Source: Patescibacteria group bacterium (GTDB lineage: Bacteria; Patescibacteriota; Patescibacteriia; UBA9934). From it: a DNA stretch of 37,328 bases. The notes beneath the pieces were generated by a model. The model did no database searches, was not told where the DNA came from, and saw only the letters and a list, made by a program, of their open reading frames with translations. The stretch spans positions 1 through 37,328 of the forward strand of contig JAHILS010000078.1 in NCBI GenBank assembly GCA_018896835.1. The letters run 5' to 3'. The position numbers and the translations under genes are program-made. Within the stretch, counting starts at the first letter, position 1; the number at the start of each line of letters is the position of its first letter. This document shows positions 17,328 through 37,328 of this stretch, piece after piece.

Positions 17328-18032
17328 CTATTGTTCAAGATAACTCACCTGAGTTATCCACGGTTCTGGATCAAAGACCACAGATCGCTGTATAACTGAC
17401 TTTCTTGAATATCTACGCTCTGCCTCTATCACTAGAGTATTCAATCCTTCTCGCAAGTCAACATAGGCATTAAAGGTTCTATTTTCATCCACAACGATTG
17501 GCTCGCCATTAACATAAACACTTGCTTCGCCCTCAACAATTCCTCTTACATTAAGCTGTGCTTCGTGGGTTAATGAGTCATTTGCCGGCGAAAGTAAAAT
17601 TACTTTTGGAGATTGAATGATTGAAAAAACCTGCCAGCCGATGTAGGCGAAAACTCCAACCAGCAAACAGCCAATACCGCTAAATCTTAAAAAATGATTC
17701 CACACAAAAAACTTTTTTCGCTCTACTCTTTGCCTTGGCGATCGCATCGGACCAATTAAATCACACGCCCCACACTCTTCCTCGTAAAGCTCCAAAAAAT
17801 ATGTTTCGTCAGCGCCCAAAGCACGAGCGTATGCTCTGATAAAATTTCTGGCATAAATCGGTTCTGGCAAATCTTCAAACCTTCCCTGTTCCAATGCTTC
17901 TAAATATTTTTTTTGAATGTGGGTTTCGCGCTCCATCATCTTCAAACTAACCGCCTTGCCACGCCGAAGTGCTCGCAACTTTTTTGCAAGCGTCTGTGGT
18001 TCACAGTCTAATTTTCGCATGACAAAAACCAT
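17328..18032 (-). CDS. RodZ-like helix-turn-helix membrane protein
   Basis: 234 aa. An N-terminal HTH block (LRALRRGKAVSLKMMERETHIQKKYLEALEQGRFEDLP...ARNFIRAYARALG) is followed by one TM helix and a C-terminal beta-rich domain. The start may be the ATG at 18020. Confidence 0.6.
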   Translation of the reverse strand: MVFVMRKLDCEPQTLAKKLRALRRGKAVSLKMMERETHIQKKYLEALEQGRFEDLPEPIYARNFIRAYARALGADETYFLELYEEECGACDLIGPMRSPRQRVERKKFFVWNHFLRFSGIGCLLVGVFAYIGWQVFSIIQSPKVILLSPANDSLTHEAQLNVRGIVEGEASVYVNGEPIVVDENRTFNAYVDLREGLNTLVIEAERRYSRKSVIQRSVVFDPEPWITQVSYLEQ

Positions 18033-24785: not shown

Positions 24786-24814
24786 TTGACACAACCTCTT
24801 TTTTGTGTTAACTT
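24786..24814 (+). promoter_or_regulatory. Putative promoter of cassette B
   Basis: TTGACA (24786-24791), a 17-nt spacer, then TAACTT (24809-24814). GGGAG lies 6 nt before the ATG at 24874. Confidence 0.5.
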
Positions 24815-24873
24815 TTCATGTCCTTTTTGTACTTTCTTCAGTGTCTCAATCCAACCAAACAGAGGGAGTCAGC

Positions 24874-25995
24874 ATGAGGAACATCCTCAACGTCATCCGT
24901 CAAATCTCGATCAATGTCTGGCACGGGATGTGCCGGTGGACCCCTGTGGTGGCTTCGGCCATCTGGGCGTTCACTGCAAAGTGGACGCCGGTCGTCTGGT
25001 CATACGCGATCATCGTGATCGTCTGGATCGGACGAGCCCTCTGGAGCACCACGAAATTCGTGGGCCGGCTCATCCGGACCACTGCAATCAATCCCATGCG
25101 CCAGAACACCAAAGTCTGGCTCTTCGGGAACATCTGGGGCGCAATCTTCTGCGCTCTGATGGTGACGGGATTCACCATCTTCTACGGACCGGTGGAAAGC
25201 CCAGTGCCAGAAGGCCCTGACATCGGTGGTGTTGACATCGATCCACCAGTGAAGCCTGGCGAGCCTGCCGTATGTGGCGACGCATGCGTCAAGGAAATTC
25301 GCAATTCGCGCTCAAAGCTCCGTGGCATCGAGAAAGAAGAATTGCGATATGTCCTGGAGGAATACAATAGCTACGTAGCGTCCGAGACCTGGCGCCAACG
25401 CGCACAGTCATGCCACCAGAACTACTGGGAGCACTTCCAGAAGGCAGAGGAGATCACGCTCTACCCGAGCGAACTCCTCGCTGGCAAGGCTTTGATCGAG
25501 GGCGCTGGATGCAAATTCATTACCGCAACAAACGGCGACGGCGGGATCGGGCCAATGCAGATCACACACCCGGTATCTGGCCACATCAACGCCACCGCAC
25601 GACTGCTTGGCACCACAAGCGACGGCGTGCAGTACAGGAGCGACTATCTGCACAACGTGCTCCTGGGCGCTGTCATGTTCTCGGACTTCGAGGACATGTT
25701 CGGAAGTCGTGGCGTTGGGATTCTCGCCTACAACCGCGGACCTGGAAATGTCCGCAGGGACATGCGACGCGCGGGACTCAACAGCTATATGCGTCGTGTG
25801 ATCTCCGACTTCCGTGGCGGAATCCCGGAGCATGCTGGAAAAGGTGGCCGCCCTCGCGTATATGCGGACAAGGTTCTGGCCGGAATGGTCATGATGTACC
25901 GTGTCTCGCATGGGCTTCCGCTCGAACCACTCACCAAGCTAACACTCGACGACATTCCTGGTGCGGATCCATCGCAAGATGGAAAGGATCGCTAG
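24874..25995 (+). CDS. Membrane-anchored lytic transglycosylase (SLT-domain) protein (high-GC cassette B)
   Basis: N-terminal hydrophobic segments are followed by SLT motifs in order: ALIEGAGC (catalytic Glu context), GGIGPMQIT and ILAYNRGPGN. The ORF track starts at 24805, but the promoter and SD favour 24874. Confidence 0.7.
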   Translation: MRNILNVIRQISINVWHGMCRWTPVVASAIWAFTAKWTPVVWSYAIIVIVWIGRALWSTTKFVGRLIRTTAINPMRQNTKVWLFGNIWGAIFCALMVTGFTIFYGPVESPVPEGPDIGGVDIDPPVKPGEPAVCGDACVKEIRNSRSKLRGIEKEELRYVLEEYNSYVASETWRQRAQSCHQNYWEHFQKAEEITLYPSELLAGKALIEGAGCKFITATNGDGGIGPMQITHPVSGHINATARLLGTTSDGVQYRSDYLHNVLLGAVMFSDFEDMFGSRGVGILAYNRGPGNVRRDMRRAGLNSYMRRVISDFRGGIPEHAGKGGRPRVYADKVLAGMVMMYRVSHGLPLEPLTKLTLDDIPGADPSQDGKDR

Positions 25996-26134: not shown

Positions 26135-26170
26135 TGGCTCACTTTGGGCCGATCGGACCAAAGTGAGCCA
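26135..26170. repeat. 36-nt CGATCG-core palindrome, family 1, copy 1
   Basis: TGGCTCACTTTGG-G-CCGATCGG-A-CCAAAGTGAGCCA has 13-bp arms and one G/A mismatch. It is identical to 26732-26767 and ends 18 nt before the ATG at 26189. Confidence 0.9.
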
Positions 26171-26188: not shown

Positions 26189-26710
26189 ATGAAATCAAAA
26201 TTTCTTAAATCAAACTCACAAACAACTCGTCTTCTAATTCGTATAGGAGATGGGTTGGAGAATATTTGTTTCACACTTGAGAACTCTCGTCTAGTTATGT
26301 CAGTAGGTATAGATGATGCAAGGACTATATTATGGCGTCGCGAACAGACAAGGATAAGAAGAACGATGCGCCAACTGAAGGAAAAAAAACTAATTAAGGT
26401 CAAAAAAGTAGGAAATAAGTACAATGTACTGCTGACAGATGAAGGCATGATCGAATACCTCCATCACAAACTTATTGATTGTAATGAGTTTGAAGACGAC
26501 CAAGTCACCATGGTGATATTTGATATACCAGAGACTCAAAGACAGGTACGAAAACAATTACGTAGGTTTCTTGAAGAAGCATGTTTTATGCCGATTCAAA
26601 AAAGTGTTTGGATTTCAAAATTTGATTCAGGAGAAATATTGTCAAATTTTTTTCAATTAAAAGGTAGACAGAAATGGATCCGGGTATTTAAAGCTAAAAG
26701 ATTATCTTAA
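26189..26710 (+). CDS. Winged-helix plus Cas2/PaaX-C-like ferredoxin-fold protein (PaaX-like regulator family suspected)
   Basis: 173 aa. The N-terminal half contains a recognition helix and wing (IRRTMRQLKEKKLIKVKKVGNKYNVLLTDEG). The C-terminal half, VTMVIFDIPETQRQVRKQLRRFLEEACFMPIQKSVWIS...WIRVFKA, follows the b1-a1-b2 pattern of Cas2 and the PaaX middle domain. It is AT-rich like the backbone. Confidence 0.55.
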   Translation: MKSKFLKSNSQTTRLLIRIGDGLENICFTLENSRLVMSVGIDDARTILWRREQTRIRRTMRQLKEKKLIKVKKVGNKYNVLLTDEGMIEYLHHKLIDCNEFEDDQVTMVIFDIPETQRQVRKQLRRFLEEACFMPIQKSVWISKFDSGEILSNFFQLKGRQKWIRVFKAKRLS

Positions 26711-26731: not shown

Positions 26732-26767
26732 TGGCTCACTTTGGGCCGATCGGACCAAAGTGAGCCA
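26732..26767. repeat. 36-nt CGATCG-core palindrome, family 1, copy 2
   Basis: Identical 36-mer lying between the stop of the 26189-26710 ORF and the stop of convergent ychF. Confidence 0.9.
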
Positions 26768-27998: not shown

Positions 27999-28031
27999 AT
28001 AATTGACCTGTCAATTATATTTTGATAAAAA
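27999..28031 (+). promoter_or_regulatory. Putative promoter of cassette C overlapped by a 20-bp palindrome (possible operator)
   Basis: TTGACC (28003-28008), a 17-nt spacer, then TAAAAA (28026-28031). The palindrome ATAATTGAC-ct-GTCAATTAT spans 27999-28018. GAGG lies 6 nt before the ATG at 28071. Confidence 0.35.
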
Positions 28032-28070
28032 AGAAGCGGTTTCGATCACCCCCAAACCCATGAGGACACC

Positions 28071-28598
28071 ATGGATCACCTGATCATCGAAGAACTCCAG
28101 GCTTTCTTCTTCCGCGCCATGCTCCAGGGCTGGATCACGGGAAAGAAGGCCAAGCCGATCGAAGGCCTGCCTGGCTACAAGGGCTTCCGACACCAAGAGG
28201 ATGCGGGAGGGTACAAGCTCCTGCTCGTCGACGCCTGGTGTAGTGGCATGGACGACTACTCCTCCGGCTTCACCACGATCTACACCTCTCCCAAGGACAC
28301 CGACGACGGCAAGCCGATCTGGACTCCGGTCTGGACCATGAACTACATGGGTCACTACGATGAGGGGGAAATCATCGTCGTGATGGATGCGCTACGCCAG
28401 GCCTATCGTACCAGGCAATTCATCGGTGGCCGAGGACTAAACTCGGTCAGGTGTGGTAACTTGCGCTACTCCAACAGAACTGGTCATACGGCCTGCTTCG
28501 AATCCTTCGACGGCATCGAGCATGTCGAAAGTAGTAAACGCACTCCCGGCTTCCATGAATACTCCGGTGGGGTGCTCTTCGACCACAAGAAGAAGTAA
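28071..28598 (+). CDS. Hypothetical protein, DUF5680-like by pattern (high-GC cassette C)
   Basis: 175 aa. The spacing of conserved aromatic and Gly residues (W.MNY.G..., GGRG..., Y.N...G....F.G.E, Y.GG) resembles DUF5680 as I recall it. This was not verified. Confidence 0.45.
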   Translation: MDHLIIEELQAFFFRAMLQGWITGKKAKPIEGLPGYKGFRHQEDAGGYKLLLVDAWCSGMDDYSSGFTTIYTSPKDTDDGKPIWTPVWTMNYMGHYDEGEIIVVMDALRQAYRTRQFIGGRGLNSVRCGNLRYSNRTGHTACFESFDGIEHVESSKRTPGFHEYSGGVLFDHKKK

Positions 28599-28640
28599 GC
28601 GTCACCCAATTTCGTCATCCGTCCTTCGGGACGAGTCCGT

Positions 28641-28666
28641 GCCCTGCGCCACCACTGGCGCGGGGC
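28641..28666 (+). terminator. GC-rich terminator of cassette C
   Basis: GCCCTGCGCC-accact-GGCGCGGGGC is followed by TTATTGCTTTC. Confidence 0.6.
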
Positions 28667-28794
28667 TTATTGCTTTCAAATTATTTTTCATACTTTGGAC
28701 GATCGTCAACTTTATGAAAAATTTATTTTAGAAAAATGCCTATTATCCACATTATTGATGTTCGTATACAAAATACAGGATGATGAACGGTCGA

Positions 28795-28823
28795 TTGACA
28801 GATAGCATATTTACAGCTAATAT
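28795..28823 (+). promoter_or_regulatory. Near-consensus sigma70 promoter of cassette D
   Basis: TTGACA (28795-28800), a 17-nt spacer, then TAATAT (28818-28823). GGAG lies upstream of the ATG at 28892. Confidence 0.55.
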
Positions 28824-28891
28824 TTGCTATCAGCTCTTTCTCACTTCCATCAACGGTACACCGTCAGCGTACCAAACCTCCGGAGAACGCC

Positions 28892-30004
28892 ATGTCCTTC
28901 CTCATCGTCCTCTTCATCCTCATCGGTTCCATATTCGCGCAGGACCTGACGGTCATGCAGGCCCACAAGACCTACGGGCTCTTGGTGGCTACCGAGAGCT
29001 TCGCGGAGTCAGAGCTGTCGCGCCCGAATGCGACGGCCCTGTGCTCCAAGAACGTGCTGGCTCTCTACAAGTCCATGCCGTTCTCGCAGATCACCAACCT
29101 GTGCAAGCCAGAGGACGCCACCCGCGCCAGCATCCTGGCCTCGGCCAGGCAGATTCAGGAATGCGCCCAGGCGGGCGACACCGTCCTGTTCTTGTTCACT
29201 GGAATGGGCGTAGGTGGAGACTTTGGTGAGCCCATGTTGCTCACCTATGACTCTGCGTTCACTTCTGAAGCAATGGCAGGAACGTCCATCAGGATCGACG
29301 AGCTCACCTCTGTCCTGTCCAAGGACGGAGTGCAGATCATCATGCTGTTGGATGCGTCGCTCAACACCAAGTTCGACCTGGTGACTGACAGTGATCCGCA
29401 ATTGATGACCACCGCGGGCCCGATCGCATCGGACGTGCCGGGCAAATACCTGTCTCTCTCCTACGCACCCAGCGTTGGAGTATGGCCACAAGATCCCGAC
29501 CTGTTTGGCAACACGCTCGCGCACGCGCTCGGTGGCGCGGCCGATGCCAACAGTGACGACACGATCACGCCCGGCGAGATCAACCGCTTCATGGTCGAAC
29601 AGATCAACACCCAAACTGGGATGCCCCCGGGCGTGCGCGGTGAGTGGAGGTCGGCGACCGAACCGATCCTCACGCTCAAGCCAGAACAAGAGCTGGCGAT
29701 CGGGTTTCCCGAACCTCATTCGTGGCGACCGATGGTCTCGCCGACCGTAAAGCGCACGGCCATTATCAGCGGAGCGTCGATGCTCGCGATCGGCGGGGCG
29801 AGCTTCGCACTTTCCTGGCGGGCGCAGAAGTGCCTGGAGGAAGTCTGCTACCAAAACCGTGACGAGTACGACTCCGCGGTTTCCCAGCGCAATGCCTTCC
29901 TCTGGGTAACCAGAGGAGCAAGTACGCTCGGCGCAATCGGACTGGGCGGAGGTCTCGTCCTCCAACCCAACAGTGCCAGCTTGAGCCTCACGGCTCGCTG
30001 GTAA
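28892..30004 (+). CDS. Secreted, C-terminally membrane-anchored caspase-like (peptidase C14 fold) protein lacking the catalytic His/Cys dyad (high-GC cassette D)
   Basis: 370 aa with a signal peptide MSFLIVLFILIGSIFAQD. The caspase-domain layout is YGLLVA...DAT...GDTVLFLFTGMG...LLTYD...IIMLLDAS. The usual SGHG is TGMG and D(A/S)C is DAS. Two hydrophobic helices lie near the C-terminus. Confidence 0.5.
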   Translation: MSFLIVLFILIGSIFAQDLTVMQAHKTYGLLVATESFAESELSRPNATALCSKNVLALYKSMPFSQITNLCKPEDATRASILASARQIQECAQAGDTVLFLFTGMGVGGDFGEPMLLTYDSAFTSEAMAGTSIRIDELTSVLSKDGVQIIMLLDASLNTKFDLVTDSDPQLMTTAGPIASDVPGKYLSLSYAPSVGVWPQDPDLFGNTLAHALGGAADANSDDTITPGEINRFMVEQINTQTGMPPGVRGEWRSATEPILTLKPEQELAIGFPEPHSWRPMVSPTVKRTAIISGASMLAIGGASFALSWRAQKCLEEVCYQNRDEYDSAVSQRNAFLWVTRGASTLGAIGLGGGLVLQPNSASLSLTARW

Positions 30005-30022
30005 AATCGCACAAATAACTAC

Positions 30023-30047
30023 GCCCGACCTCCCCTGGAGGTCGGGC
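30023..30047 (+). terminator. GC-rich terminator of cassette D
   Basis: GCCCGACCTC-ccctg-GAGGTCGGGC is followed by GCTCATGTTTTC. Confidence 0.6.
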
Positions 30048-30069
30048 GCTCATGTTTTCTGCTAAAACT

Positions 30070-30127: not shown

Positions 30128-32491
30128 TTATTCCACTAAATCCAAAGTCTGACTGTCCTCCAGTGGCTCCAATACTTCATCCGTAACCAGCCCCGCTTGC
30201 AGACGACCTAATCTTTCGGTGATCAACACATTGTCAGGATTTAGCTCTAAAACTTTTTGCACTTCCTCAATCGCTCCCTCTATATTTCCTTGTTGTTCGT
30301 AAACAGATGACAAAAACCAACGAGCATTACTATAATCTGGTGACAAAGTTATAACATACTCAAATTCTGTTTTTGCATCATCAAGCTTTCCTTGTTGCAG
30401 ATACAAAAATCCGAGCTGGAGGATCAAATTAGCATCATATGGATTATCTGCTTGTAGTGACCTTATTCTAGCAATGGCTTCGGAAAGATTACCTTGACGC
30501 TCATAGGCAAGTGCCAAATAATATTGAGCTGGCGCATAATCACTCTTTAAAGAAAGCGCAGTATTCATGGCGTCAATCGCATTTGTTAATGCGAGCAGTC
30601 TGGCTTGTATTGAAGAATTAGCTAAAGCCTCATCATCACCACTAATAATTGAAGCAAGAGCATCAGCTTGCGCTAAATATCCTTGTCCCAACGCCAAATA
30701 GTACTTTGGATTTGTGGGAGCAAGCATTATAGCTGACTGATAAGCTAATATAGCAAACTCGTCGGCTCCTAAAACAAACGGCGTGATCTCTCGGTAAATG
30801 TCTCCAAGCATCAACTGATTTTCAATAACATTAGGAGATAATTGCACTGCTTTGATTGCATTACCAGTGCCTTGGTCGATATAACTAAAAACGATTTCCG
30901 GATTGACCGATGTATCTGAAAGCAACTCTCCACTTTTATACAAATAGGCATAGGCTAAATTTCTAGCATATACATCGTTCCGCTTGTTTAAAGCTTGTGC
31001 CATGGTTAACTGCTCTATAACTTCATCAGCTGATCCGCCAGATGCACTACTAATAATCGCCTTGGCATAGACAATGTCTGACCCATACCTGGAAGCTGTT
31101 AAAAAACCGATCGTCAAAACACACAAGGCGCATATCATCCCAATAAATACAGCAAAAAATAAATGAACTTGTGACTTACCAAACACGATTCTTTTTTCTG
31201 ACGTATAACCAATGCCAAGAATCATGGCGCTGAGCATCCAAAATATTACTTGCAGGGTCATGTCCGAAGAATAGAAAAATTGCGATATTGCTAAAGACAA
31301 CCATGCCAGCGACAACCCCAAATACAACTGATGCTCAGCTCCTTTGCTATTTACAACTATCTTAAAGCCATTTACCAGCATTAGAACAAGCAGTAATAAA
31401 TAAAAGAAAACTGTTGCCCAGCCCATTGTGGTTAGCATTGTTAGGATATGGCTTGATGATCGATTAAAAACTGTATCCCATAAAACTGAGTTATTTAAAA
31501 CCTCTGGCTTGTATTTTTGGAAATTAATTTCGTACGTGCCAGGACCTGACCCAAATAACAATGAATTTTCTGACAAAGTCTGTTGCGAAATCTGCCAACT
31601 TGTCTGAGTAGTTGGCGCCAACTCTGGCGGAGTACTGAGGCTTCCTGGCGTGGAAACGAAAATAAATAACAAACAAGCGACAAGTATGGCTACCAATAAA
31701 AATAAATTTTTACCCTTGATAACTGTTATGCGATGTGAGAATGAGCTAATAAAGATGGCGCAAATAGCGATTGCTAGCAATGCCCAGAGCAACCAAAAAT
31801 CAAGAGCGTAAAGAATAAAAATGGTAAATGGAATTATAACGTAGCTGGAAACTCGGGTGGCAAAACCGGTTACGCCCGCAAATAAACTCTTAGGCAATTC
31901 CTTAATGTTAAACAATGCTGACAGGGAAAGAGCAAACATGGCAGTGCTATAAACTCCAAGTGCGTTTGGAGCACCGATGAAATTCTGTTGTAAAATTACA
32001 ATGTTAAAAAGAGATAATACTTGCAAAAGCAATATTATTGAGGCTGGAATAAGCAAAGCCTGGATAAACTTTGGAAGCGTTTCTTGACTGACAACATTTA
32101 ATCCAACTAGCAAAAAAATTATGCATGAGCCCCAGGTTAATAGACTAGTATATTCCTGGCCCGACGACCCAAACCAGCTTTGGTATTGAGCCAAGGAAAA
32201 AATGGTTGAAATTAAAACACTGACAAAAAATGCCAGCAACAAGCCGTGAATCCAGGTTTTTTTTACAACTAATGCTTTTTGAATAACAAGTGAACTGGCC
32301 CATGCTAGAAAAGAGATAATAGAACAGAAGACTAATAATGTTTGCTTATTTATCTCCAACGCCTCTGACGTCCAGGGCAAATAAGTAATCGGTACTAGCG
32401 CAACTGCCAGTAAAAAGAAAAAACGGGCTATGAATTGCGAGAATAAAACGAGACGATGTTCTCGCCTATGCAAGAGATCATTTATAATCAT
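30128..32491 (-). CDS. Polytopic membrane protein with C-terminal TPR repeats (O-antigen ligase/Wzy-like family suspected)
   Basis: 787 aa. Roughly the first 470 residues are a series of hydrophobic helices. The C-terminal 300 aa or so carry clear TPR units (e.g. AQYYLALAYERQGNLSEAIARIRSLQADNPYD, ARWFLSSVYEQQGNIEGAIEEVQKVLELNPDN). It starts 6 nt after the upstream stop. Confidence 0.7.
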   Translation of the reverse strand: MIINDLLHRREHRLVLFSQFIARFFFLLAVALVPITYLPWTSEALEINKQTLLVFCSIISFLAWASSLVIQKALVVKKTWIHGLLLAFFVSVLISTIFSLAQYQSWFGSSGQEYTSLLTWGSCIIFLLVGLNVVSQETLPKFIQALLIPASIILLLQVLSLFNIVILQQNFIGAPNALGVYSTAMFALSLSALFNIKELPKSLFAGVTGFATRVSSYVIIPFTIFILYALDFWLLWALLAIAICAIFISSFSHRITVIKGKNLFLLVAILVACLLFIFVSTPGSLSTPPELAPTTQTSWQISQQTLSENSLLFGSGPGTYEINFQKYKPEVLNNSVLWDTVFNRSSSHILTMLTTMGWATVFFYLLLLVLMLVNGFKIVVNSKGAEHQLYLGLSLAWLSLAISQFFYSSDMTLQVIFWMLSAMILGIGYTSEKRIVFGKSQVHLFFAVFIGMICALCVLTIGFLTASRYGSDIVYAKAIISSASGGSADEVIEQLTMAQALNKRNDVYARNLAYAYLYKSGELLSDTSVNPEIVFSYIDQGTGNAIKAVQLSPNVIENQLMLGDIYREITPFVLGADEFAILAYQSAIMLAPTNPKYYLALGQGYLAQADALASIISGDDEALANSSIQARLLALTNAIDAMNTALSLKSDYAPAQYYLALAYERQGNLSEAIARIRSLQADNPYDANLILQLGFLYLQQGKLDDAKTEFEYVITLSPDYSNARWFLSSVYEQQGNIEGAIEEVQKVLELNPDNVLITERLGRLQAGLVTDEVLEPLEDSQTLDLVE

Positions 32492-32496
32492 AAATT

Positions 32497-35400
32497 TTAC
32501 TCAATTGATTCAGTGACTTGTTCTGGGGCTACTTCAACAGTTGGCTCAACAACATCTTCTTCAACAACAGCATCTTCAACAACGGCATCTTCAACAACGG
32601 CATCTTCAACAGCTTCTTCTTCAACAACATCTTCTTCTATAACTTCCTCCTGATCAATCTCAACTCCATCACCAACAACTATTTCATCTACAACCTCATC
32701 AACGTCGGTAATATCTTGACTCCTATCCTCTGTAATCACTTGATCAACCGGCTCATTAAAGATTTCAACAATATCCTCATCGACAATCTCAACATTTTGA
32801 TCAACGACGTTCTCCTCAATATTTTCTTCTTCCACCGCTATATTATCTTTTTCTACTTCAACATCTGGAGCGTAATCCTTATGATACGCAATTACCAGCC
32901 AATCAACATTTACACCATTAGTTTCAAGAGTATCCTTGATTATAAAGCCTTCCGAGTCTCTATTGATCGCATAAAGTGAACCAGATGGCGCATCGGCTGT
33001 CAAAAATACGCGGTAAGTAGAAAGATTATCAATTATTTTTTCAAAATTAGGGTCAATGTCCGCAAAAATTACATGCGCTCGACCATTCTGAAGCTTGATA
33101 GTACCGGAAAGCTCAATAGTTGTTTGTGGTGATACAACCGCATAAGCTTCTATTCGCTCTCCGCCATACGACTTAATATTTTGTACAAATCTGCCACCAG
33201 TCTTGATTGTCCCGTCCTCAGAAATTGACCAAACGTTACCAATCCCCGCGATCGATCCAACCGAAAGCAAACTTCCTCCACTCAAATTCACAATGCCAGA
33301 AAGATCAAGTGTGCTTGATGAGGCGACCTGAGTGATCGAATTATCAGAAAGGTCAGCACTTTGTCCATCAAAGTATGAAGGACGGACAAAAACAGAAATA
33401 GATCCGACTGTTCCCGAGAATGCTTCCATGGCATAACCAACAATTGGGCCAGACTCTGTCGCCTTCATGGCATAGCCTGGTTTGGATGAGGTTGTTAGCG
33501 GATCTCCAATTGAAATCGACCCGTTCTCATTACTGACATAGGTTGGAACTCGACCAGAAAGCGCAATTGGTACATGACCGTCAATATTATTTCCTGCTAA
33601 AAATCCGGGTTGAGTGGAAACAATGCCGGCAATTTTTGCGTCATAAGTAGTACCAGTTGATCGTTTTACCGAATCCTTACTGCTTGCAAACACCACAACT
33701 TCACCTGGCGCCACTGGCTCTGCGACTGGGAACATTTCGGCAAAGTCATATGAGCCCGATCCCCAACCAGACGCGTTAGTACGCATAAAATCTCCGCCAA
33801 GTCCGGAGGAACCATCGTAATAAATATATTTATCAGTCTGCAAAACTCCACGATCTGATGGATACAAACGACCCGAAATTGCCATGTCGCCGTCTTGATT
33901 TATAAATCCAACCTCTGTCTCACCCGTGTTTCTAAATGATAATTGATAGTTTGACGCGTCTGTCACACTATTTACAAACCCCATGGAAATATCCTGAGCT
34001 GATGCTCCGTCCCAGCCTGATCCGCGAAGCATTAGTCCATAGGAATTGAGTCCTGGCATAACCGCGTCAGCTGTACCTGTTGAGTCTAGTACCAAGTCTG
34101 TTCCGACCGATGTCATACTACCGTCTTGCGCTAAAACATTTATAGCCTGCCACTTTGGCTGAACATAGACATTAATTCTGCCAGTACCTGACAAGTGTGA
34201 CTCTAAAGCGCGACCAATCACATAACCAACTCCATTTGCCTTCATTACAACGCCCGGAGTTGAAGAAAGTGTCAGATAATCACCTGCCGTAATTGCGCCA
34301 CCTTCATCATTTACATTAATTGGAACCTGACCCAAAAGTGCTACCGGAACATACGCACCAGTCTCGCGCCAGCCTTCAAACCAATTTCCAATCACATTTG
34401 GAGATATAGAATATGCACCAATTATTTTGTCGGCATTGGAGGCTATAGTTGCGTTTCCTAATGAATCAATTCCTATTACATCACCATCTGAAAAATCCGC
34501 CATAACACCAGGAAATAACTCTGCATAATCACTTCCAGGAGACACAAGCGCAACGCCGCCACCAGTTCCTTCGATTGCACCTAATGGATCGCCACTGCCA
34601 TCTTTTAGCAATAAATAATTACATGCATCTGTAGGGTTTGAATCTAAGCAAGCCTGTATACTTATACCCATGTTTGTGTAAGCATTTCCGTCATTAAAGA
34701 AGCTAGCGATGTAATCGGTTGTGCCGAATGCAGAAACATACATAGCTTGCTGATCACCGACTTGATTTACATACAGGGAGTACCCCGTACCAGAGTTCGT
34801 TGTGTACAGGGTGTTACCGGTAGATGCACCGTCTCCCATACTCAAGCTAACAAGTCCTGTGCTTGCATTAATAAAATCGGTCGCGCTGTTATCACGAGAA
34901 ACATACACAGCACTTCCGGTTGTAAGAGTATCATTCACTATTGCTGTGATAAACCCGCCAGTCTGTCCGGTGCCATCAACTTCCAGTTGATCGTATACAT
35001 ACAAATCCCCTGATCCGGTTGAATAATTGGCGGTCGACGGCGTTGAACTATTTTCAACATGAACAGCCGATCCGAAAAAATATCCAGCATAATTATTTGT
35101 GCCACCCGACGCTGTGCCTCGCACTCCGTAACGATTAATACCGGCACTTTTGCTAGAAAAATCACCACCGTAGCCTGTTGTTATTGTGCCAGCACCGCTA
35201 CTGACCTCACCTTGAACACCAAAAGCGCTCGAAATCGTTCCGCCTGATGACAGGACTTTGCCATAAACACCAACAACAGTCGGTATGGTTGATCCTACCC
35301 CGCTATTATATGCCTCAGAATATAGGCCATACATCGTGTTTTCTATTGGAGATACAGCTGTTGATGAATTAATTGCGCGGATCTCCATCCCCTTCATTAT

Positions 35401-36561
35401 ATTAATAGCCCCGGTGCCTGAGTTGATTGTAGCCGATCCGATTCCAGTTACTGCCTGATCATATCCCATACTTTCCACAGAAGAATTAGTCGTCTGGCTA
35501 AACAAGCCATAATAACCATATGTTCCAGCCCCACCAGACGCTGGCGTTCCCAAACCTGACACAGTCTTCATGCCATACGCGTCAGAGGGCGATGAACCAA
35601 AAGATCCATTTAATGAATGCTCAAAATATCCATCAGCAAATCCCCAACTATCGCTACTATATGTTAGCGTGCCAGTTCCGGCTGTTGCATCCTTAAATGT
35701 AAGAGTAGGATTTATGGAACCACTACCAAAATATACATAGCCAGTACTTGGTGCCACACCAAAAGTTGAGGCATTCGCTACCGTTCCGCCAATAGCAACG
35801 TCATCAGTTGATGTTGTTGCGTAGACCGTTGATCCACCGTCGGTCCAACCGATATCATTTAAATATGCAACTGTGCCTGATGCGTTTTGGAAAGTGATTG
35901 TTTTGTCAGAAAGTGTAGGGTCGGTTATAGCAAAAATTGTTTCATAATCATCGGCTGTTGCTCCTTCAAAAACAAGTGGTAATGCGCCAGAAAATGTCGA
36001 GCCAGTAAAATCGTTAGCTCCGGTGATCGTATTGTTTGACCCAAGACCAAAGAAACTGGTTGAATCAAGGCCGTCGAGCATGTCAGCATTCATGGCATAA
36101 GGGCTTGCAACAAGACGCTTTCGTGGAGTAAGAGTCTCACCGTCAATGGTCACCTGTAAGTAGACCGAGGCATCGTCAAAAATTGTTGTTGGGATCGCGG
36201 CAAACGAATCGCTTATGTCACCTAAATTCTGTGTAAATAATCCGTCCGTCAAAGTGACTGTTTTTGCAGTTGCGGTTGAACAGTCTGACGCAGAGTTTGA
36301 CCAAAGACAGGTTCCAGCAGCTAGTGCGTCATAAAACTCAAACACAATATCGATTGTTGCGTCGGAAATCGGAACGCCGTTTGCATTCAAAATACGTCCT
36401 TGATAGGAAATCATGCGCGGAGGGGTATCGGCCGCAAAAACATTTGCATTATAAAATGTTGAGCTGGAAAAAATAATAAATAAAACCATCAAAACCTCAA
36501 TGGCTTTTTTCCATTTATTTGTAATTATTTTTAGCTTCTTCATACTACCGCGTCCACGCAC
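32497..36561 (-). CDS. Giant tail-fibre-like surface protein with two Peptidase_G2/intramolecular-chaperone-like modules and an acidic repeat tail
   Basis: 1354 aa with an N-terminal anchor/signal (AIEVLMVLFIIFSSSTFYNANVFA). A tail-fibre-type N-domain follows (MISYQGRILNANGVPISD, VASPYAMNADMLDGLDSTSF), then a Gly/Ser/Thr-rich beta region. Two modules begin GSDYAELFP and GSYDFAEMFP. The track start is GTG at 36561; an ATG at 36543 is an alternative. Confidence 0.8.
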   Translation of the reverse strand: MRGRGSMKKLKIITNKWKKAIEVLMVLFIIFSSSTFYNANVFAADTPPRMISYQGRILNANGVPISDATIDIVFEFYDALAAGTCLWSNSASDCSTATAKTVTLTDGLFTQNLGDISDSFAAIPTTIFDDASVYLQVTIDGETLTPRKRLVASPYAMNADMLDGLDSTSFFGLGSNNTITGANDFTGSTFSGALPLVFEGATADDYETIFAITDPTLSDKTITFQNASGTVAYLNDIGWTDGGSTVYATTSTDDVAIGGTVANASTFGVAPSTGYVYFGSGSINPTLTFKDATAGTGTLTYSSDSWGFADGYFEHSLNGSFGSSPSDAYGMKTVSGLGTPASGGAGTYGYYGLFSQTTNSSVESMGYDQAVTGIGSATINSGTGAINIMKGMEIRAINSSTAVSPIENTMYGLYSEAYNSGVGSTIPTVVGVYGKVLSSGGTISSAFGVQGEVSSGAGTITTGYGGDFSSKSAGINRYGVRGTASGGTNNYAGYFFGSAVHVENSSTPSTANYSTGSGDLYVYDQLEVDGTGQTGGFITAIVNDTLTTGSAVYVSRDNSATDFINASTGLVSLSMGDGASTGNTLYTTNSGTGYSLYVNQVGDQQAMYVSAFGTTDYIASFFNDGNAYTNMGISIQACLDSNPTDACNYLLLKDGSGDPLGAIEGTGGGVALVSPGSDYAELFPGVMADFSDGDVIGIDSLGNATIASNADKIIGAYSISPNVIGNWFEGWRETGAYVPVALLGQVPINVNDEGGAITAGDYLTLSSTPGVVMKANGVGYVIGRALESHLSGTGRINVYVQPKWQAINVLAQDGSMTSVGTDLVLDSTGTADAVMPGLNSYGLMLRGSGWDGASAQDISMGFVNSVTDASNYQLSFRNTGETEVGFINQDGDMAISGRLYPSDRGVLQTDKYIYYDGSSGLGGDFMRTNASGWGSGSYDFAEMFPVAEPVAPGEVVVFASSKDSVKRSTGTTYDAKIAGIVSTQPGFLAGNNIDGHVPIALSGRVPTYVSNENGSISIGDPLTTSSKPGYAMKATESGPIVGYAMEAFSGTVGSISVFVRPSYFDGQSADLSDNSITQVASSSTLDLSGIVNLSGGSLLSVGSIAGIGNVWSISEDGTIKTGGRFVQNIKSYGGERIEAYAVVSPQTTIELSGTIKLQNGRAHVIFADIDPNFEKIIDNLSTYRVFLTADAPSGSLYAINRDSEGFIIKDTLETNGVNVDWLVIAYHKDYAPDVEVEKDNIAVEEENIEENVVDQNVEIVDEDIVEIFNEPVDQVITEDRSQDITDVDEVVDEIVVGDGVEIDQEEVIEEDVVEEEAVEDAVVEDAVVEDAVVEEDVVEPTVEVAPEQVTESIE
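32556..32615. repeat. 15-bp tandem repeat (about 4 units) encoding an acidic DAVVE repeat
   Basis: CATCTTCAACAACGG occurs at 32571-32585 and 32586-32600, with partial units on either side. On the minus strand it translates as AVEDAVVEDAVVEDAVVEED. Confidence 0.85.
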
Positions 36562-36598
36562 AACTTTTGTACGAAGACGTGGTGTTACAATGGAAACA

Positions 36599-37328
36599 TT
36601 ATACCGCGTTTGCGATTTTTTTACTTAGTGATACATCCACAGAAATAACATCAGGTTCTTTTTTGCTAGAAAAATCAATCGGTCGAACTTCCTGGTGTTC
36701 ATATCCTGGCTGTTCGAACGTTAAAAAGTATTTATTTGGCCCAGCCATAAATGCATACTTTCCATTTCCATCAGTCACTGTTGATTCAATTAGGCGATTA
36801 AACTCAGGCTCAAACAAACGCACAACTGTATTTTTAAGTGGCTTTTGTTTTTGACCATCGTTTACGATTCCCCAGCCTTTCTTTTTTCGCCAGGCAGTTA
36901 AGAAATGTGTGATTGAATAAATTATAGTGTGAAGTATTACTATCCCGAGGCTTAAAATGGTCGGCTGAATAATCAAAATAATAATTGCTATTAACAATCC
37001 CGATAATGCGAGAACGTGACAAAAGATTCTTAAAAATCTTCTAAAAATAAGGCTTTTTGACTCGTGATACTTTATTTCCTGCGAAGGATCCATTGGAATG
37101 TTAGCCGAGATTATGACGTTTGCTTCGGTTACCTCGATGTCTCCTTGATCGTAAACATCATCAAATACTACATCCTTAGTTTTGCCAGCCATGTATTCAC
37201 TTGGAAAAACAAAACCAGCTTTTTTAACTTCAATTTTATAAACGCCAGGCTGGGCTTTAAAAATATATCGTCCGTGTTTATCTGACACAGTTGTCTTTAC
37301 CAGCTTTCCCTCTTTGGTAAATAACCTA
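36599..37328 (-). CDS. Membrane protein with two carboxypeptidase-regulatory-like (CarboxypepD_reg) beta-sandwich domains; 5' end lies outside the window
   Basis: The frame stays open upstream of the track start, which is a GTG at 37288, and reads ...RLFTKEGKLVKTTVSDKHGRYIFKAQPGVYKIEV. A second copy of the pattern is VTDGNGKYAFMAGPNKYFLTFEQPGY. Hydrophobic helices lie between the two. Confidence 0.6.
   Translation of the reverse strand, partial: RLFTKEGKLVKTTVSDKHGRYIFKAQPGVYKIEVKKAGFVFPSEYMAGKTKDVVFDDVYDQGDIEVTEANVIISANIPMDPSQEIKYHESKSLIFRRFLRIFCHVLALSGLLIAIIILIIQPTILSLGIVILHTIIYSITHFLTAWRKKKGWGIVNDGQKQKPLKNTVVRLFEPEFNRLIESTVTDGNGKYAFMAGPNKYFLTFEQPGYEHQEVRPIDFSSKKEPDVISVDVSLSKKIANAV

Follow-up and report, generated by a model that had tools for sequence, protein, structure and literature searches.

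The subject of this analysis is a cluster of three minus-strand genes at the end of a 37,328-nucleotide (nt) stretch of DNA (contig JAHILS010000078.1 of assembly GCA_018896835.1, from a Patescibacteria group bacterium; 'the window' below means this whole stretch). An earlier interpretation made from the letters alone (the sequence-only reading) had described them as a translationally tight trio encoding a membrane protein (gene 1), a giant protein with the character of a phage tail fibre (gene 2) and a Wzy-like membrane protein with a tetratricopeptide repeat (TPR) array (gene 3). Its coordinates and gaps proved correct and every peptide that it quoted was found in the translations. The genes, taken from the open reading frame (ORF) list, and the terminator that follows them are:

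30128..32491, minus strand: gene 3 (operon gene E), 787 aa, a polytopic membrane protein with a C-terminal TPR array (ORF list)
32497..36561, minus strand: gene 2 (operon gene D), 1354 aa with a GTG start, very probably a secreted fibre protein (ORF list)
36599..>37328, minus strand: gene 1 (operon gene C, the third of five in relatives), C-terminal 242 residues only, the N-terminus lying beyond the window end
30021..30049, acting in both directions: hairpin terminator with a 13-bp stem (10 G-C pairs) and a T-rich tail, between the gene 3 stop and a convergent ORF

Genes 3 and 2 are separated by 5 nt and genes 2 and 1 by 37 nt (or by 55 nt, should the true start of gene 2 be the ATG six codons further in, the one used in P0001, a database copy of 1348 aa). 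The hairpin sits about 80 nt past the gene 3 stop and no comparable terminator was found in the gaps between the three genes; it closes the operon, after gene 3 only. Judged by homology these are real genes and not chance ORFs, as each has many homologues with E-values given as 0. The closest matches come from metagenome-assembled genomes of Candidatus Uhrbacteria and 'Parcubacteria', and in these relatives the cluster continues past the point at which the window ends. The order is A (~280–330 aa), B (~280–340 aa), C (gene 1), D (gene 2) and E (gene 3), with reading frames that often overlap or nearly abut; genes A and B lie upstream of the window end and are known from the relatives only. The unit is thus not the trio that had been proposed but a five-gene operon that also includes a Pam-pilus-type protein and a chaperone-like protein. 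We think it probable that genes 1–3 are the distal part of a five-gene surface-appendage operon, a hallmark of Candidatus Uhrbacteria, which would produce a secreted trimeric adhesin fibre together with a partner.

Gene 2 carries most of the evidence for this interpretation. More than 120 homologues (786–2362 aa long) were found in Uhrbacteria and other Patescibacteria, and relatives of the fibre gene occur in at least 127 GTDB species. The encoded protein is laid out as follows:

36430..36561, minus strand: signal peptide region, residues 1–44, probable cleavage after NVFA (read from the sequence)
36037..36429, minus strand: MAT_N-like N-terminal beta-rich domain, residues 45–175, with an invariant Cys85/Cys94 pair, ending with the motif SPYAMNADMLDGLDS
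34537..36036, minus strand: lineage-variable Gly/Ser/Thr-rich middle, residues 176–675 (from composition and alignment coverage), the presumed shaft and specificity region
34132..34536, minus strand: first gp12/Dpo31-type auto-chaperone (intramolecular chaperone, IMC) module, residues 676–810, predicted scissile bond between S677 and D678 in GSDYAELF
33757..34131, minus strand: conserved beta domain between the two auto-chaperone modules, residues 811–935 (model strands 204–289, pLDDT ~80–92)
33367..33756, minus strand: second auto-chaperone module, residues 936–1065, motif GSYDFAEMFP, candidate bond between Y938 and D939
32857..33366, minus strand: conserved C-terminal beta domain, role unassigned, residues 1066–1235 (model strands 464–588, pLDDT 72–95)
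32500..32856, minus strand: acidic Asp/Glu/Val-rich tail, residues 1236–1354, encoded in part by a 15-nt tandem repeat

The signal peptide region contains no lipobox Cys and, within the N-terminal part of the protein, is where conservation is lowest. NCBIfam family NF053851 (Bdello_MAT_N) matches residues 43–128 (E 5.3e-7, 29.6 bits) and likewise all 19 of the aligned orthologues (best E 6.5e-9). In the MAT fibres of Bdellovibrio bacteriovorus a conserved N-domain of about 130 aa comes straight after the signal peptide and is thought to dock the fibre on the predator surface; of the MAT subfamilies, S74 has a chaperone-protease domain (SDxxxK) and NS74 an independently folding variable C-terminal tip (PMC10769870). 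Gene 2 resembles these fibres in that a signal peptide is followed by a detectably related beta-rich N-domain, in the length of the protein and its possession of a variable region, in its predicted self-processing chaperone module of phage type, in a weak Foldseek match to the Bd2439 fibre tip and in coming from a producer that lives on other bacteria. It differs from them in that its module is of gp12/Peptidase_G2 type, duplicated, internal and without the SDxxxK motif (no match to Peptidase_S74 was obtained for the window protein with Pfam, NCBIfam or PHROG), in that the variable part occupies the central, not the C-terminal, portion of the precursor, and in that the gene belongs to a monoderm bacterium of the candidate phyla radiation (CPR), where it sits in a fixed operon as opposed to a dispersed multigene family.

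Conservation is spread very unevenly along the protein. Across 119 homologues alignment coverage is 70–89% at the N-domain and the C-terminal modules and about one third at residues 250–450; the variable middle aligns in 32–46% of homologues as against 84–89% at the N-domain and second auto-chaperone module. Identity among orthologues is 52–85% in the N-domain (52–56% in the full-length ones) and falls as low as 12–26% in residues 176–400; the C-terminal ~650 residues belong to the conserved and not to the variable part. The second auto-chaperone module is the most conserved of all (64–96% identity across orthologues, with an invariant run S937–P945), and the C-terminal beta domain (residues 1066–1235) is kept in the orthologues and in proteins P0104 and P0117. 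More distant relatives (786–2362 aa) share the N-domain and one auto-chaperone module, which in many of them forms the end of the protein, and the order N-domain, variable region, terminal module is the canonical layout of a tail fibre or tailspike. A diversity-generating retroelement was considered as the source of the variable middle and dropped, as the window has neither template/variable repeat pairs nor a reverse transcriptase. At the other end of the protein 56 acidic residues lie within residues 1201–1354, and here the 15-nt tandem repeat (family D1, 32516–32728, at the 3' end of the gene) encodes a tail of (E/D)DAVV type that is poorly conserved in orthologues.

The two modules were recognized by several independent routes. 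Domain D4 of phi29 gp12 is the classic tailspike auto-chaperone, which stands at the very C-terminus and cuts itself off once the trimer has assembled. When the orthologue profile of gene 2 was compared with PDB sequences a single solved structure was returned, 28nb_A, chaperon domain D4 of the tailspike Dpo31 (E 0.004), the match being centred on GSDYAE(L/Y)F. In Dpo31, which comes from a marine phage, D4, which starts at Asp664, has invariably been cleaved off and can be superposed on D4 of phi29 gp12 (PMC13317679). At a position equivalent to the first module, six homologues of gene 2 matched Pfam Peptidase_G2 (PF11962) at 24.4–36.8 bits (five of the six reach the 25-bit cut-off), over only the first ~60–90 of the 228 profile positions; the window protein alone gave no match to this family at E<=0.1. 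The second module (residues 975–1042) was matched by the PHROG tail-fibre family phrog_19602 with an E-value of 7e-9. An AlphaFold2 model of residues 640–1240 had a mean pLDDT of 81.7 (domains mostly 80–96, first module >90), and a Foldseek search of the PDB with it matched the C-terminal fragment of phi29 gp12 (3gqh_A, TM-score 0.56 on the target, 171 columns) as well as pre-mature gp12 (3suc), the cyanophage Pam1 tailspike and phage cement proteins. Among the predicted viral structures of BFVD there were 81 matches at E<=1e-3, including tail and tail-fibre-like proteins and a 'preneck appendage protein barrel' (E 9e-9, TM-score 0.63, rmsd 2.6).

From these results the tail-fibre character claimed for gene 2 by the sequence-only reading is well founded, as the PHROG family, Bdello_MAT_N, Peptidase_G2 in the homologues and the structural matches to phi29 gp12 all point the same way, and we regard its identity as a fibre with considerable confidence. 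Several results nevertheless weigh on the other side. The Bdello_MAT_N matches, in the window protein and in all 19 orthologues, lie under the family cut-off of 60 bits, which also counts among the differences from the MAT proteins; a Pfam scan of the window protein gave nothing above threshold; the E-values of the PDB Foldseek matches are modest (2e-3 to 7e-3, those to gp12 3e-3 to 7e-3); and the same barrel fold is also matched by phage capsid cement proteins. A phmmer search of the PDB with gene 2 returned noise only.

Self-cleavage of the modules is less certain than the identity of the fibre. As points in common with D4 of gp12 and Dpo31, the (G)SDYAE.F motif stands at the start of the domain, aligned with the first residues of the cleaved Dpo31 D4, and the barrel fold is the same. 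The differences are that gene 2 has two tandem, non-terminal copies, the second with the variant SYDFAEMF, that no beta-helix enzyme domain was detected upstream of them and that the protein is cellular and carries a Sec signal peptide, not being a component of a virion. Both modules are internal (676–810 and 936–1065 of 1354) with about 290 residues following the second, while the module of gp12 and Dpo31 is terminal, and this internal and duplicated arrangement means that cleavage in gene 2 may not occur or may release a product other than the one proposed below. By analogy with gp12 and Dpo31, self-cleavage of gene 2 seems to us evenly poised.

The auto-chaperone also raises the possibility that gene 2 is a tailspike-like depolymerase which, once trimerized with the help of its chaperone, degrades a surface polymer of the host or of a neighbour, as phi29 gp12 and Dpo31 do. 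A gp12/Dpo31-type auto-chaperone is characteristically attached to beta-helical depolymerizing tailspikes (PMC13317679), and Foldseek also returned Klebsiella phage depolymerases and a K1 capsule lyase. However, the depolymerase matches cover just 73–94 columns of the chaperone region, and no match to a beta-helix, pectate-lyase or hydrolase family was obtained in the window protein or in the six homologues scanned. Among the Pfam accessions listed for the homologues we recognized none as a beta-helix or pectate-lyase family, and the highly variable Gly/Ser/Thr-rich middle fits a binding shaft better than an enzyme. We regard a depolymerase as improbable.

The presence of phage-type domains might equally suggest that the locus is the remnant of a prophage or tailocin, with gene 2 a plain phage tail fibre, but this is effectively refuted. 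The window is a piece of cellular chromosome (UvrA, UvrB, RuvC, YebC, RpoC, RpoB, RecA, FtsK, EF-P, SSB, S6 and YchF are present; no tRNA genes were found in it) and its 37 kb hold no other phage genes, the neighbours being UvrA, UvrB, RpoB, RpoC, RecA, FtsK and YchF. The GC content of the three genes (~38–45%) is near that of the window, which is typically ~40–45%. Relatives of gene 2 occur in 127 GTDB species, and the 80 loci retrieved share the gene order where their flanks show it; the protein has a Sec signal peptide, and a tblastn search of 50,697 GenBank phage records with its C-terminal half gave no match. The housekeeping neighbours, the signal peptide, the constant gene order across species and the lack of a phage tblastn match together argue that gene 2 is not phage-borne.

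The two genes that precede gene 1 in the relatives connect the operon with the Pam pili of CPR bacteria. Gene A was matched by NCBIfam PamT in 26 of 26 orthologues (best E 3.9e-18) and by Pam_pilin_C in 19 of the 26 (best E 4.1e-10); the members listed singly score 27.6–41.7 bits for PamT, against a cut-off of 240 bits, and in one case 25.1 for Pam_pilin_C, against 55 bits. By profile comparison gene A is homologous to pilus proteins of the CPR Pam system; a homologue search that started from it found close orthologues only and no named Pam protein. Gene B has a signal peptide, a C-terminal membrane helix and a basic tail in all 39 orthologues, and its first ~100 mature residues gave weak matches to EfmWxLIP1, a solved WxL-interacting protein of Enterococcus (E 0.001), and to WxLIP_PGBD (6/24 orthologues). 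The membrane-anchored, PapD/FimC-like chaperones PamC/D likewise start with a signal peptide and end in a membrane helix (Troman et al. 2026 preprint, doi 10.64898/2026.03.03.709456), and WxLIP proteins consist of two tandem Ig-like domains (DUF916-DUF3324) and a C-terminal membrane helix (PMC10599100). The likeness of gene B to the WxL clusters of Firmicutes thus lies in its signal peptide, its C-terminal helix and weak WxLIP matches over the first Ig domain only; this similarity is marginal, and no WxL-domain protein was identified in the Uhrbacteria cluster.

That Pam operons have a tail fibre-like gene beside them has been remarked on before, as the Pam preprint states in a single sentence that an uncharacterized 'tail fibre-like protein' is consistently co-localized with pam operons and forms a central node (doi 10.64898/2026.03.03.709456). 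The same work places Pam pilins mainly in Saccharimonadia and Microgenomatia, describes a system with PamA, PamB, PamE and PamT and with ATP synthase genes near the pam loci, and reports a modification on Ser356 of PamA (doi 10.64898/2026.03.03.709456), which we count in support of a modifying role for gene 3. It describes no protein of the gene 3 type, since neither 'TPR', 'tetratricopeptide', 'glycos' nor 'O-antigen' occurs in its text. The Uhrbacteria cluster shares with the Pam system the homology of gene A to PamT and the pilin C-domain, the PamC/D-like ends of gene B, a tail fibre-like gene and restriction to CPR; it differs in host group, in having a single pilin-like gene, in scores far under the cut-offs and in the neighbourhood, as the 10-kb flanks of the Uhrbacteria loci contain RmuC, S20, YchF and a methyltransferase but no ATP synthase genes.

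Of gene 1 only the C-terminal fragment was available, as the window end cuts the gene, and the features that it contains are:

37088..37327, minus strand: first CarboxypepD_reg/SdrD_B-like beta-sandwich, fragment residues 1–80 (SdrD_B at 2–50; TVSDKHGRYIF)
36899..37027, minus strand: hairpin of two transmembrane helices, fragment residues 101–143 (hydropathy peak 101–119; RRFLR and RKKK on either side)
36602..36880, minus strand: second CarboxypepD_reg repeat, fragment residues 150–242 (best PF13620 stretch 153–226)

Within that limit the two CarboxypepD_reg stretches around transmembrane helices that had been read from the sequence were recovered by Pfam (PF13620, E 2.9e-14, 53.6 bits against a cut-off of 32.3, in two stretches; SdrD_B, E 8.7e-11), and a full-length orthologue scored 78.5 bits against PF13620. 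The fragment is 62–66% identical to the last ~240 residues of proteins of 830–836 aa encoded by the related loci L001 and L003. At full length (687–1156 aa) the orthologues have one more membrane helix, linkers of acidic low-complexity sequence, a signal peptide and an N-terminal beta domain, conserved and ~160 aa long, in which a pair of Cys residues is invariant; some also contain FnIII domains (L009). Lys/Arg clusters flank every membrane segment on the beta-sandwich side (window 36602–37327; L001 5444–7936), and the positive-inside rule would put both beta-sandwiches in the cytoplasm and the large N-terminal part outside the cell, a placement of the beta-sandwiches that is unusual for the fold. 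The N-terminal domain was also considered as a second pilin and this was dropped, since hhalign gave 19% for its relation to gene A and no PDB match was found.

Another reading takes the fibre for a distal tip, or an adaptor, on a pilus of the Pam type that the upstream genes would build by donor-strand exchange, and not for a fibre anchored to the cell in its own right; gene 1 would then be a PamR-like membrane terminator. This would be compatible with much of our model, and it draws on the clear homology of gene A to PamT and the Pam pilin C-domain, on the PamC/D-like signal peptide and C-terminal helix of gene B with its weak WxLIP-like match over the first domain, on the place of the tail fibre-like gene as a central, consistently co-localized node in the Pam preprint, and on the N-terminal beta domain and membrane helices of the gene 1 orthologues (with FnIII in L009), which resemble PamR. 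Set against this are the single pilin-like gene where the Pam system has PamA, PamB, PamE and PamT, the fact that every Pam match is far under the equivalog cut-offs, the lack of detectable relationship between the gene 1 N-domain and gene A (the hhalign result just given), flanks that lack the ATP synthase genes of pam loci, and a locus, L011, that has the fibre and gene 3 without any homologue of A, B or C. We consider such a pilus tip unlikely.

The remaining gene of the operon, gene 3, has 46 homologues across Patescibacteria and divides into two parts:

31082..32491, minus strand: 13-helix membrane domain, residues 1–470, with a loop at ~279–347 carrying the motif LFGSGPGT(F/Y), divergent Wzy_C superfamily
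30131..31081, minus strand: TPR array, residues 471–787 (repeats ~480–770), predicted to lie outside the membrane

The sequence-only reading had given this protein at least 12 transmembrane helices and a large TPR array, and both were borne out by an AlphaFold2 model (pLDDT 89, pTM 0.85) in which 13 long helices, with a large loop at ~279–347, are followed by a TPR superhelix. The Pfam matches on gene 3 are to TPR families only (E 5e-18 to 1e-13), and in the PDB the profile matches of the TPR part are consensus TPR proteins and the OGT TPR domain, in agreement with Foldseek. Lys/Arg-rich and Lys/Arg-poor loops alternate along the protein, and this alternation together with the 13 helices predicts that the N-terminus is inside and that the large loop and TPR array are outside.

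The description of the membrane domain as Wzy-like holds at the level of remote homology, since a membrane-domain profile of gene 3 (A2) was aligned by hhalign with a distant relative, P0166, at a probability of 99% (E 3.7e-18, 390 columns), and P0166 itself passes the Pfam Wzy_C (PF04932) threshold at 59 bits; a closer family member, P0146, matches Wzy_C under the cut-off (E 5.4e-5). P34, K49, W236, G314, G316, F342 and G357 are invariant in the gene 3 family and P317 nearly so, the G-x-G-P motif of the large loop being retained. The membrane domain of gene 3 itself gave no match to Wzy_C even at E<=10, and the column of the P0166 His is occupied by Ser, Thr or Asn in the gene 3 family, with a His two residues further on (H348) in 11 of 30 members. 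PglL and WaaL both depend on the His of the Wzy_C 'HN' motif for their function. Structural databases gave no help with this domain: a Foldseek search of the PDB with the full model was swamped by TPR proteins, as was a search of PDB sequences with the full-length profile, while the membrane-only profile found nothing there and the Wzy_C-bearing P0166 found no solved ligase in the PDB.

A Wzy_C domain with C-terminal TPRs has been described for WsfB, the predicted S-layer protein O-oligosaccharyltransferase of Paenibacillus alvei, and for PglL (PMC2943079), and from this shared layout we prefer the reading that gene 3 modifies the secreted fibre or the pilin. Gene 3 is like these enzymes in having a Wzy_C-superfamily domain with a large outward loop ahead of C-terminal TPRs and in adjoining genes for secreted Ser/Thr-rich surface proteins. 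It is unlike them in that the homology is remote, the 'HN' His is not conserved, the TPR array, at ~300 residues, is far bigger than theirs, genes for glycan synthesis do not adjoin it (none was found anywhere in the window, which counts against a glycosylating role) and the family also occurs away from fibre genes. We therefore propose a glycosyltransferase role by analogy and tentatively, at somewhat less than an even chance.

How closely gene 3 belongs to the fibre was judged from gene order. Eighty species-level loci were retrieved, and gene 3 was scored in the 67 that had at least 3.5 kb of flank. It lies downstream of the fibre gene on the same strand in 65 of these 67 Uhrbacteria species, and the order of the genes is alike in the 80 retrieved loci where the flanks allow it to be seen. 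The sequence-only reading had expected such a conserved neighbourhood, and in this much it was right. Within Uhrbacteria, however, the flanks are as conserved as the cluster (RmuC upstream in 30/30 loci, YchF downstream in 40/47), so that gene order alone is no proof of a functional link and the pairing is inseparable from general synteny; distant homologues of the genes occur apart. Co-occurrence in relatives, and matches to tail-fibre and Wzy-like families, were nonetheless found, and it was on the absence of these that the sequence-only reading had said it would fall.

Alternatively, gene 3 may be a general envelope enzyme, either a polymerase or ligase of a cell-wall-linked glycopolymer or a general protein glycosylase, which adjoins the fibre gene by inherited order only. 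Full-length homologues of the same length and layout, 25–28% identical, occur in Portnoybacteria, Yanofskybacteria and other Parcubacteria, where they stand beside MurJ, YceG/MltG or a sortase-CLIPPER pair with neither a fibre gene nor A, B or C genes nearby, and two of the more distant fibre relatives have no gene 3 homologue near them. Within Uhrbacteria synteny extends to the surrounding genes (RmuC, S20, YchF, methyltransferase), some species have 2–5 kb of other genes between the fibre gene and gene 3, and in two species with ample flank gene 3 is not downstream at all. All these observations tell against a dedicated partnership. On the other side, the spacing between fibre gene and gene 3 is 5–12 nt in the closest genomes, with a terminator only after gene 3; a TPR array that is predicted to face outward points to a partner or substrate that is a protein; and the pair persists in L011, where all the flanks are different. 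This last locus lies outside the Uhrbacteria synteny (its flanks are L19, guanylate kinase, ValRS and ArgRS) and retains, besides a relative of the fibre and a gene of 164 aa, a homologue of gene 3 that is full-length and 31% identical. It is the best evidence for a specific link between the fibre and gene 3, and we regard a general envelope enzyme as somewhat unlikely.

Some further observations concern the loci of the relatives. Upstream in L011 (7037–9979), in place of the Pam-like genes, are genes for two cohesin-domain proteins and a dockerin-domain protein; these were tested as homologues of A, B or C and are not homologous, and their presence hints at an alternative, cellulosome-style assembly of the surface complex. 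In L006 (5491–9592) and L008 (5021–9236) a gene for a large secreted protein precedes the distant gene 3 homologue (a CLIPPER-repeat protein with a sortase, or an unknown protein of 955 aa) and a divergent gene for a MerR-type regulator lies between the two. A recurring pairing of gene 3-type membrane proteins with surface proteins is possible. Dozens of the GTDB assemblies with the locus (L013, L016, L018, L020, L021 and others) are titled 'uncultured Gammaproteobacteria bacterium', and these titles look wrong, as the informatively titled matches are all Uhrbacteria, Patescibacteria or Parcubacteria.

From the domain identities, the homologies and the conserved gene order we infer a model for the operon in which trimerization, cleavage, anchoring, glycosylation, adhesion and host attachment are the predicted elements. 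The gene 2 product would be exported by Sec and, after removal of its signal peptide, fold as a homotrimeric fibre whose MAT_N-like domain would sit next to the cell, docked on a surface partner, and whose variable Gly/Ser/Thr-rich middle would carry the target specificity. The two gp12/Dpo31-type modules would template folding and trimerization and then probably cut themselves at the bond between S677 and D678, and perhaps at that between Y938 and D939, freeing the conserved C-terminal half with the acidic tail; if they cleave as in gp12 and Dpo31, the variable part would become the distal end of the mature fibre. Gene 1, a predicted three-helix protein with a large extracellular N-terminal part, would most likely be the anchor or platform. 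Gene 3 would most likely act on the secreted fibre or the pilin, as WsfB and PglL do on their substrates, the TPR array holding the protein substrate during transfer of a lipid-linked glycan, and it may modify or dock the fibre through its outward catalytic loop and this array. Judged from sequence, the locus is a good candidate for the attachment of these tiny bacteria to other cells.

A few further features were recorded elsewhere in the window. Two islands of high GC content stand out, at 24805–25995 (0.58) and 28000–30004 (0.52–0.61), against ~40–45% elsewhere. The first contains a 396-aa ORF with an SLT lytic-transglycosylase domain, and an SLT gene lies in the same syntenic slot of one relative; the second contains an ORF with a sub-threshold match to DUF5680 and a 370-aa ORF without a Pfam match that is convergent with gene 3. 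The gene content of the slot between YchF and gene 3 varies between relatives. Identical 36-nt palindromes (TGGCTCACTTTGGGCCGATCGGACCAAAGTGAGCCA) at 26135–26170 and 26732–26767 flank a 173-aa ORF (26189–26710) with a PaaX central Cas2-like domain (E 6.8e-14); a pair of terminators, or the boundaries of a small mobile cassette, would be possible explanations for them. Between FtsK and RecA (17328–18032) is a 234-aa ORF with HTH_25, a membrane segment and a Glucodextran_B-like beta domain, a layout like that of RodZ.

As far as the libraries and the literature covered show, each part of the operon has a known relative, and it is the combination and the anatomy that appear to be new. The anatomy of the fibre appears to be so (the variable middle on a MAT_N-like base, then a tandem pair of internal gp12-type modules, one more C-terminal domain and the acidic tail), as does the fixed partnership in Uhrbacteria of such a fibre with a Wzy_C-TPR protein that lacks the canonical His and with a CarboxypepD_reg membrane protein; Pam-related genes, as identified by their profile matches, likewise appear to be extended here to Uhrbacteria for the first time. 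The locus joins parts that are understood elsewhere, namely the N-domain of the predator MAT fibres, a phage tailspike auto-chaperone, the layout of S-layer and pilin O-glycosyltransferases and a Pam-type pilin, and the analysis characterizes the kind of 'tail fibre-like' neighbour that the Pam preprint only mentions.

Most CPR bacteria, or Patescibacteria, are uncultured, and the main leads on how they find and hold their partners are type IV pili and the recently described Pam pili. The variable cassette of gene 2 offers a sequence handle for linking Uhrbacteria lineages to their hosts. A more far-reaching and speculative proposal, which we think doubtful, is that Uhrbacteria, and perhaps other CPR bacteria, possess a composite host-recognition organelle, encoded by one operon and made up of a Pam-type donor-strand-exchange pilus module and a phage-derived, self-cleaving trimeric fibre with a swappable central host-range cassette, which a dedicated His-less Wzy_C-TPR enzyme would modify or dock on the outside of the cell. 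If this were true, CPR bacteria would have their own equivalent of the Bdellovibrio MAT fibres, joined to a pilus system, and the organelle would provide a genomic marker with which the hosts of uncultured episymbionts might be predicted.

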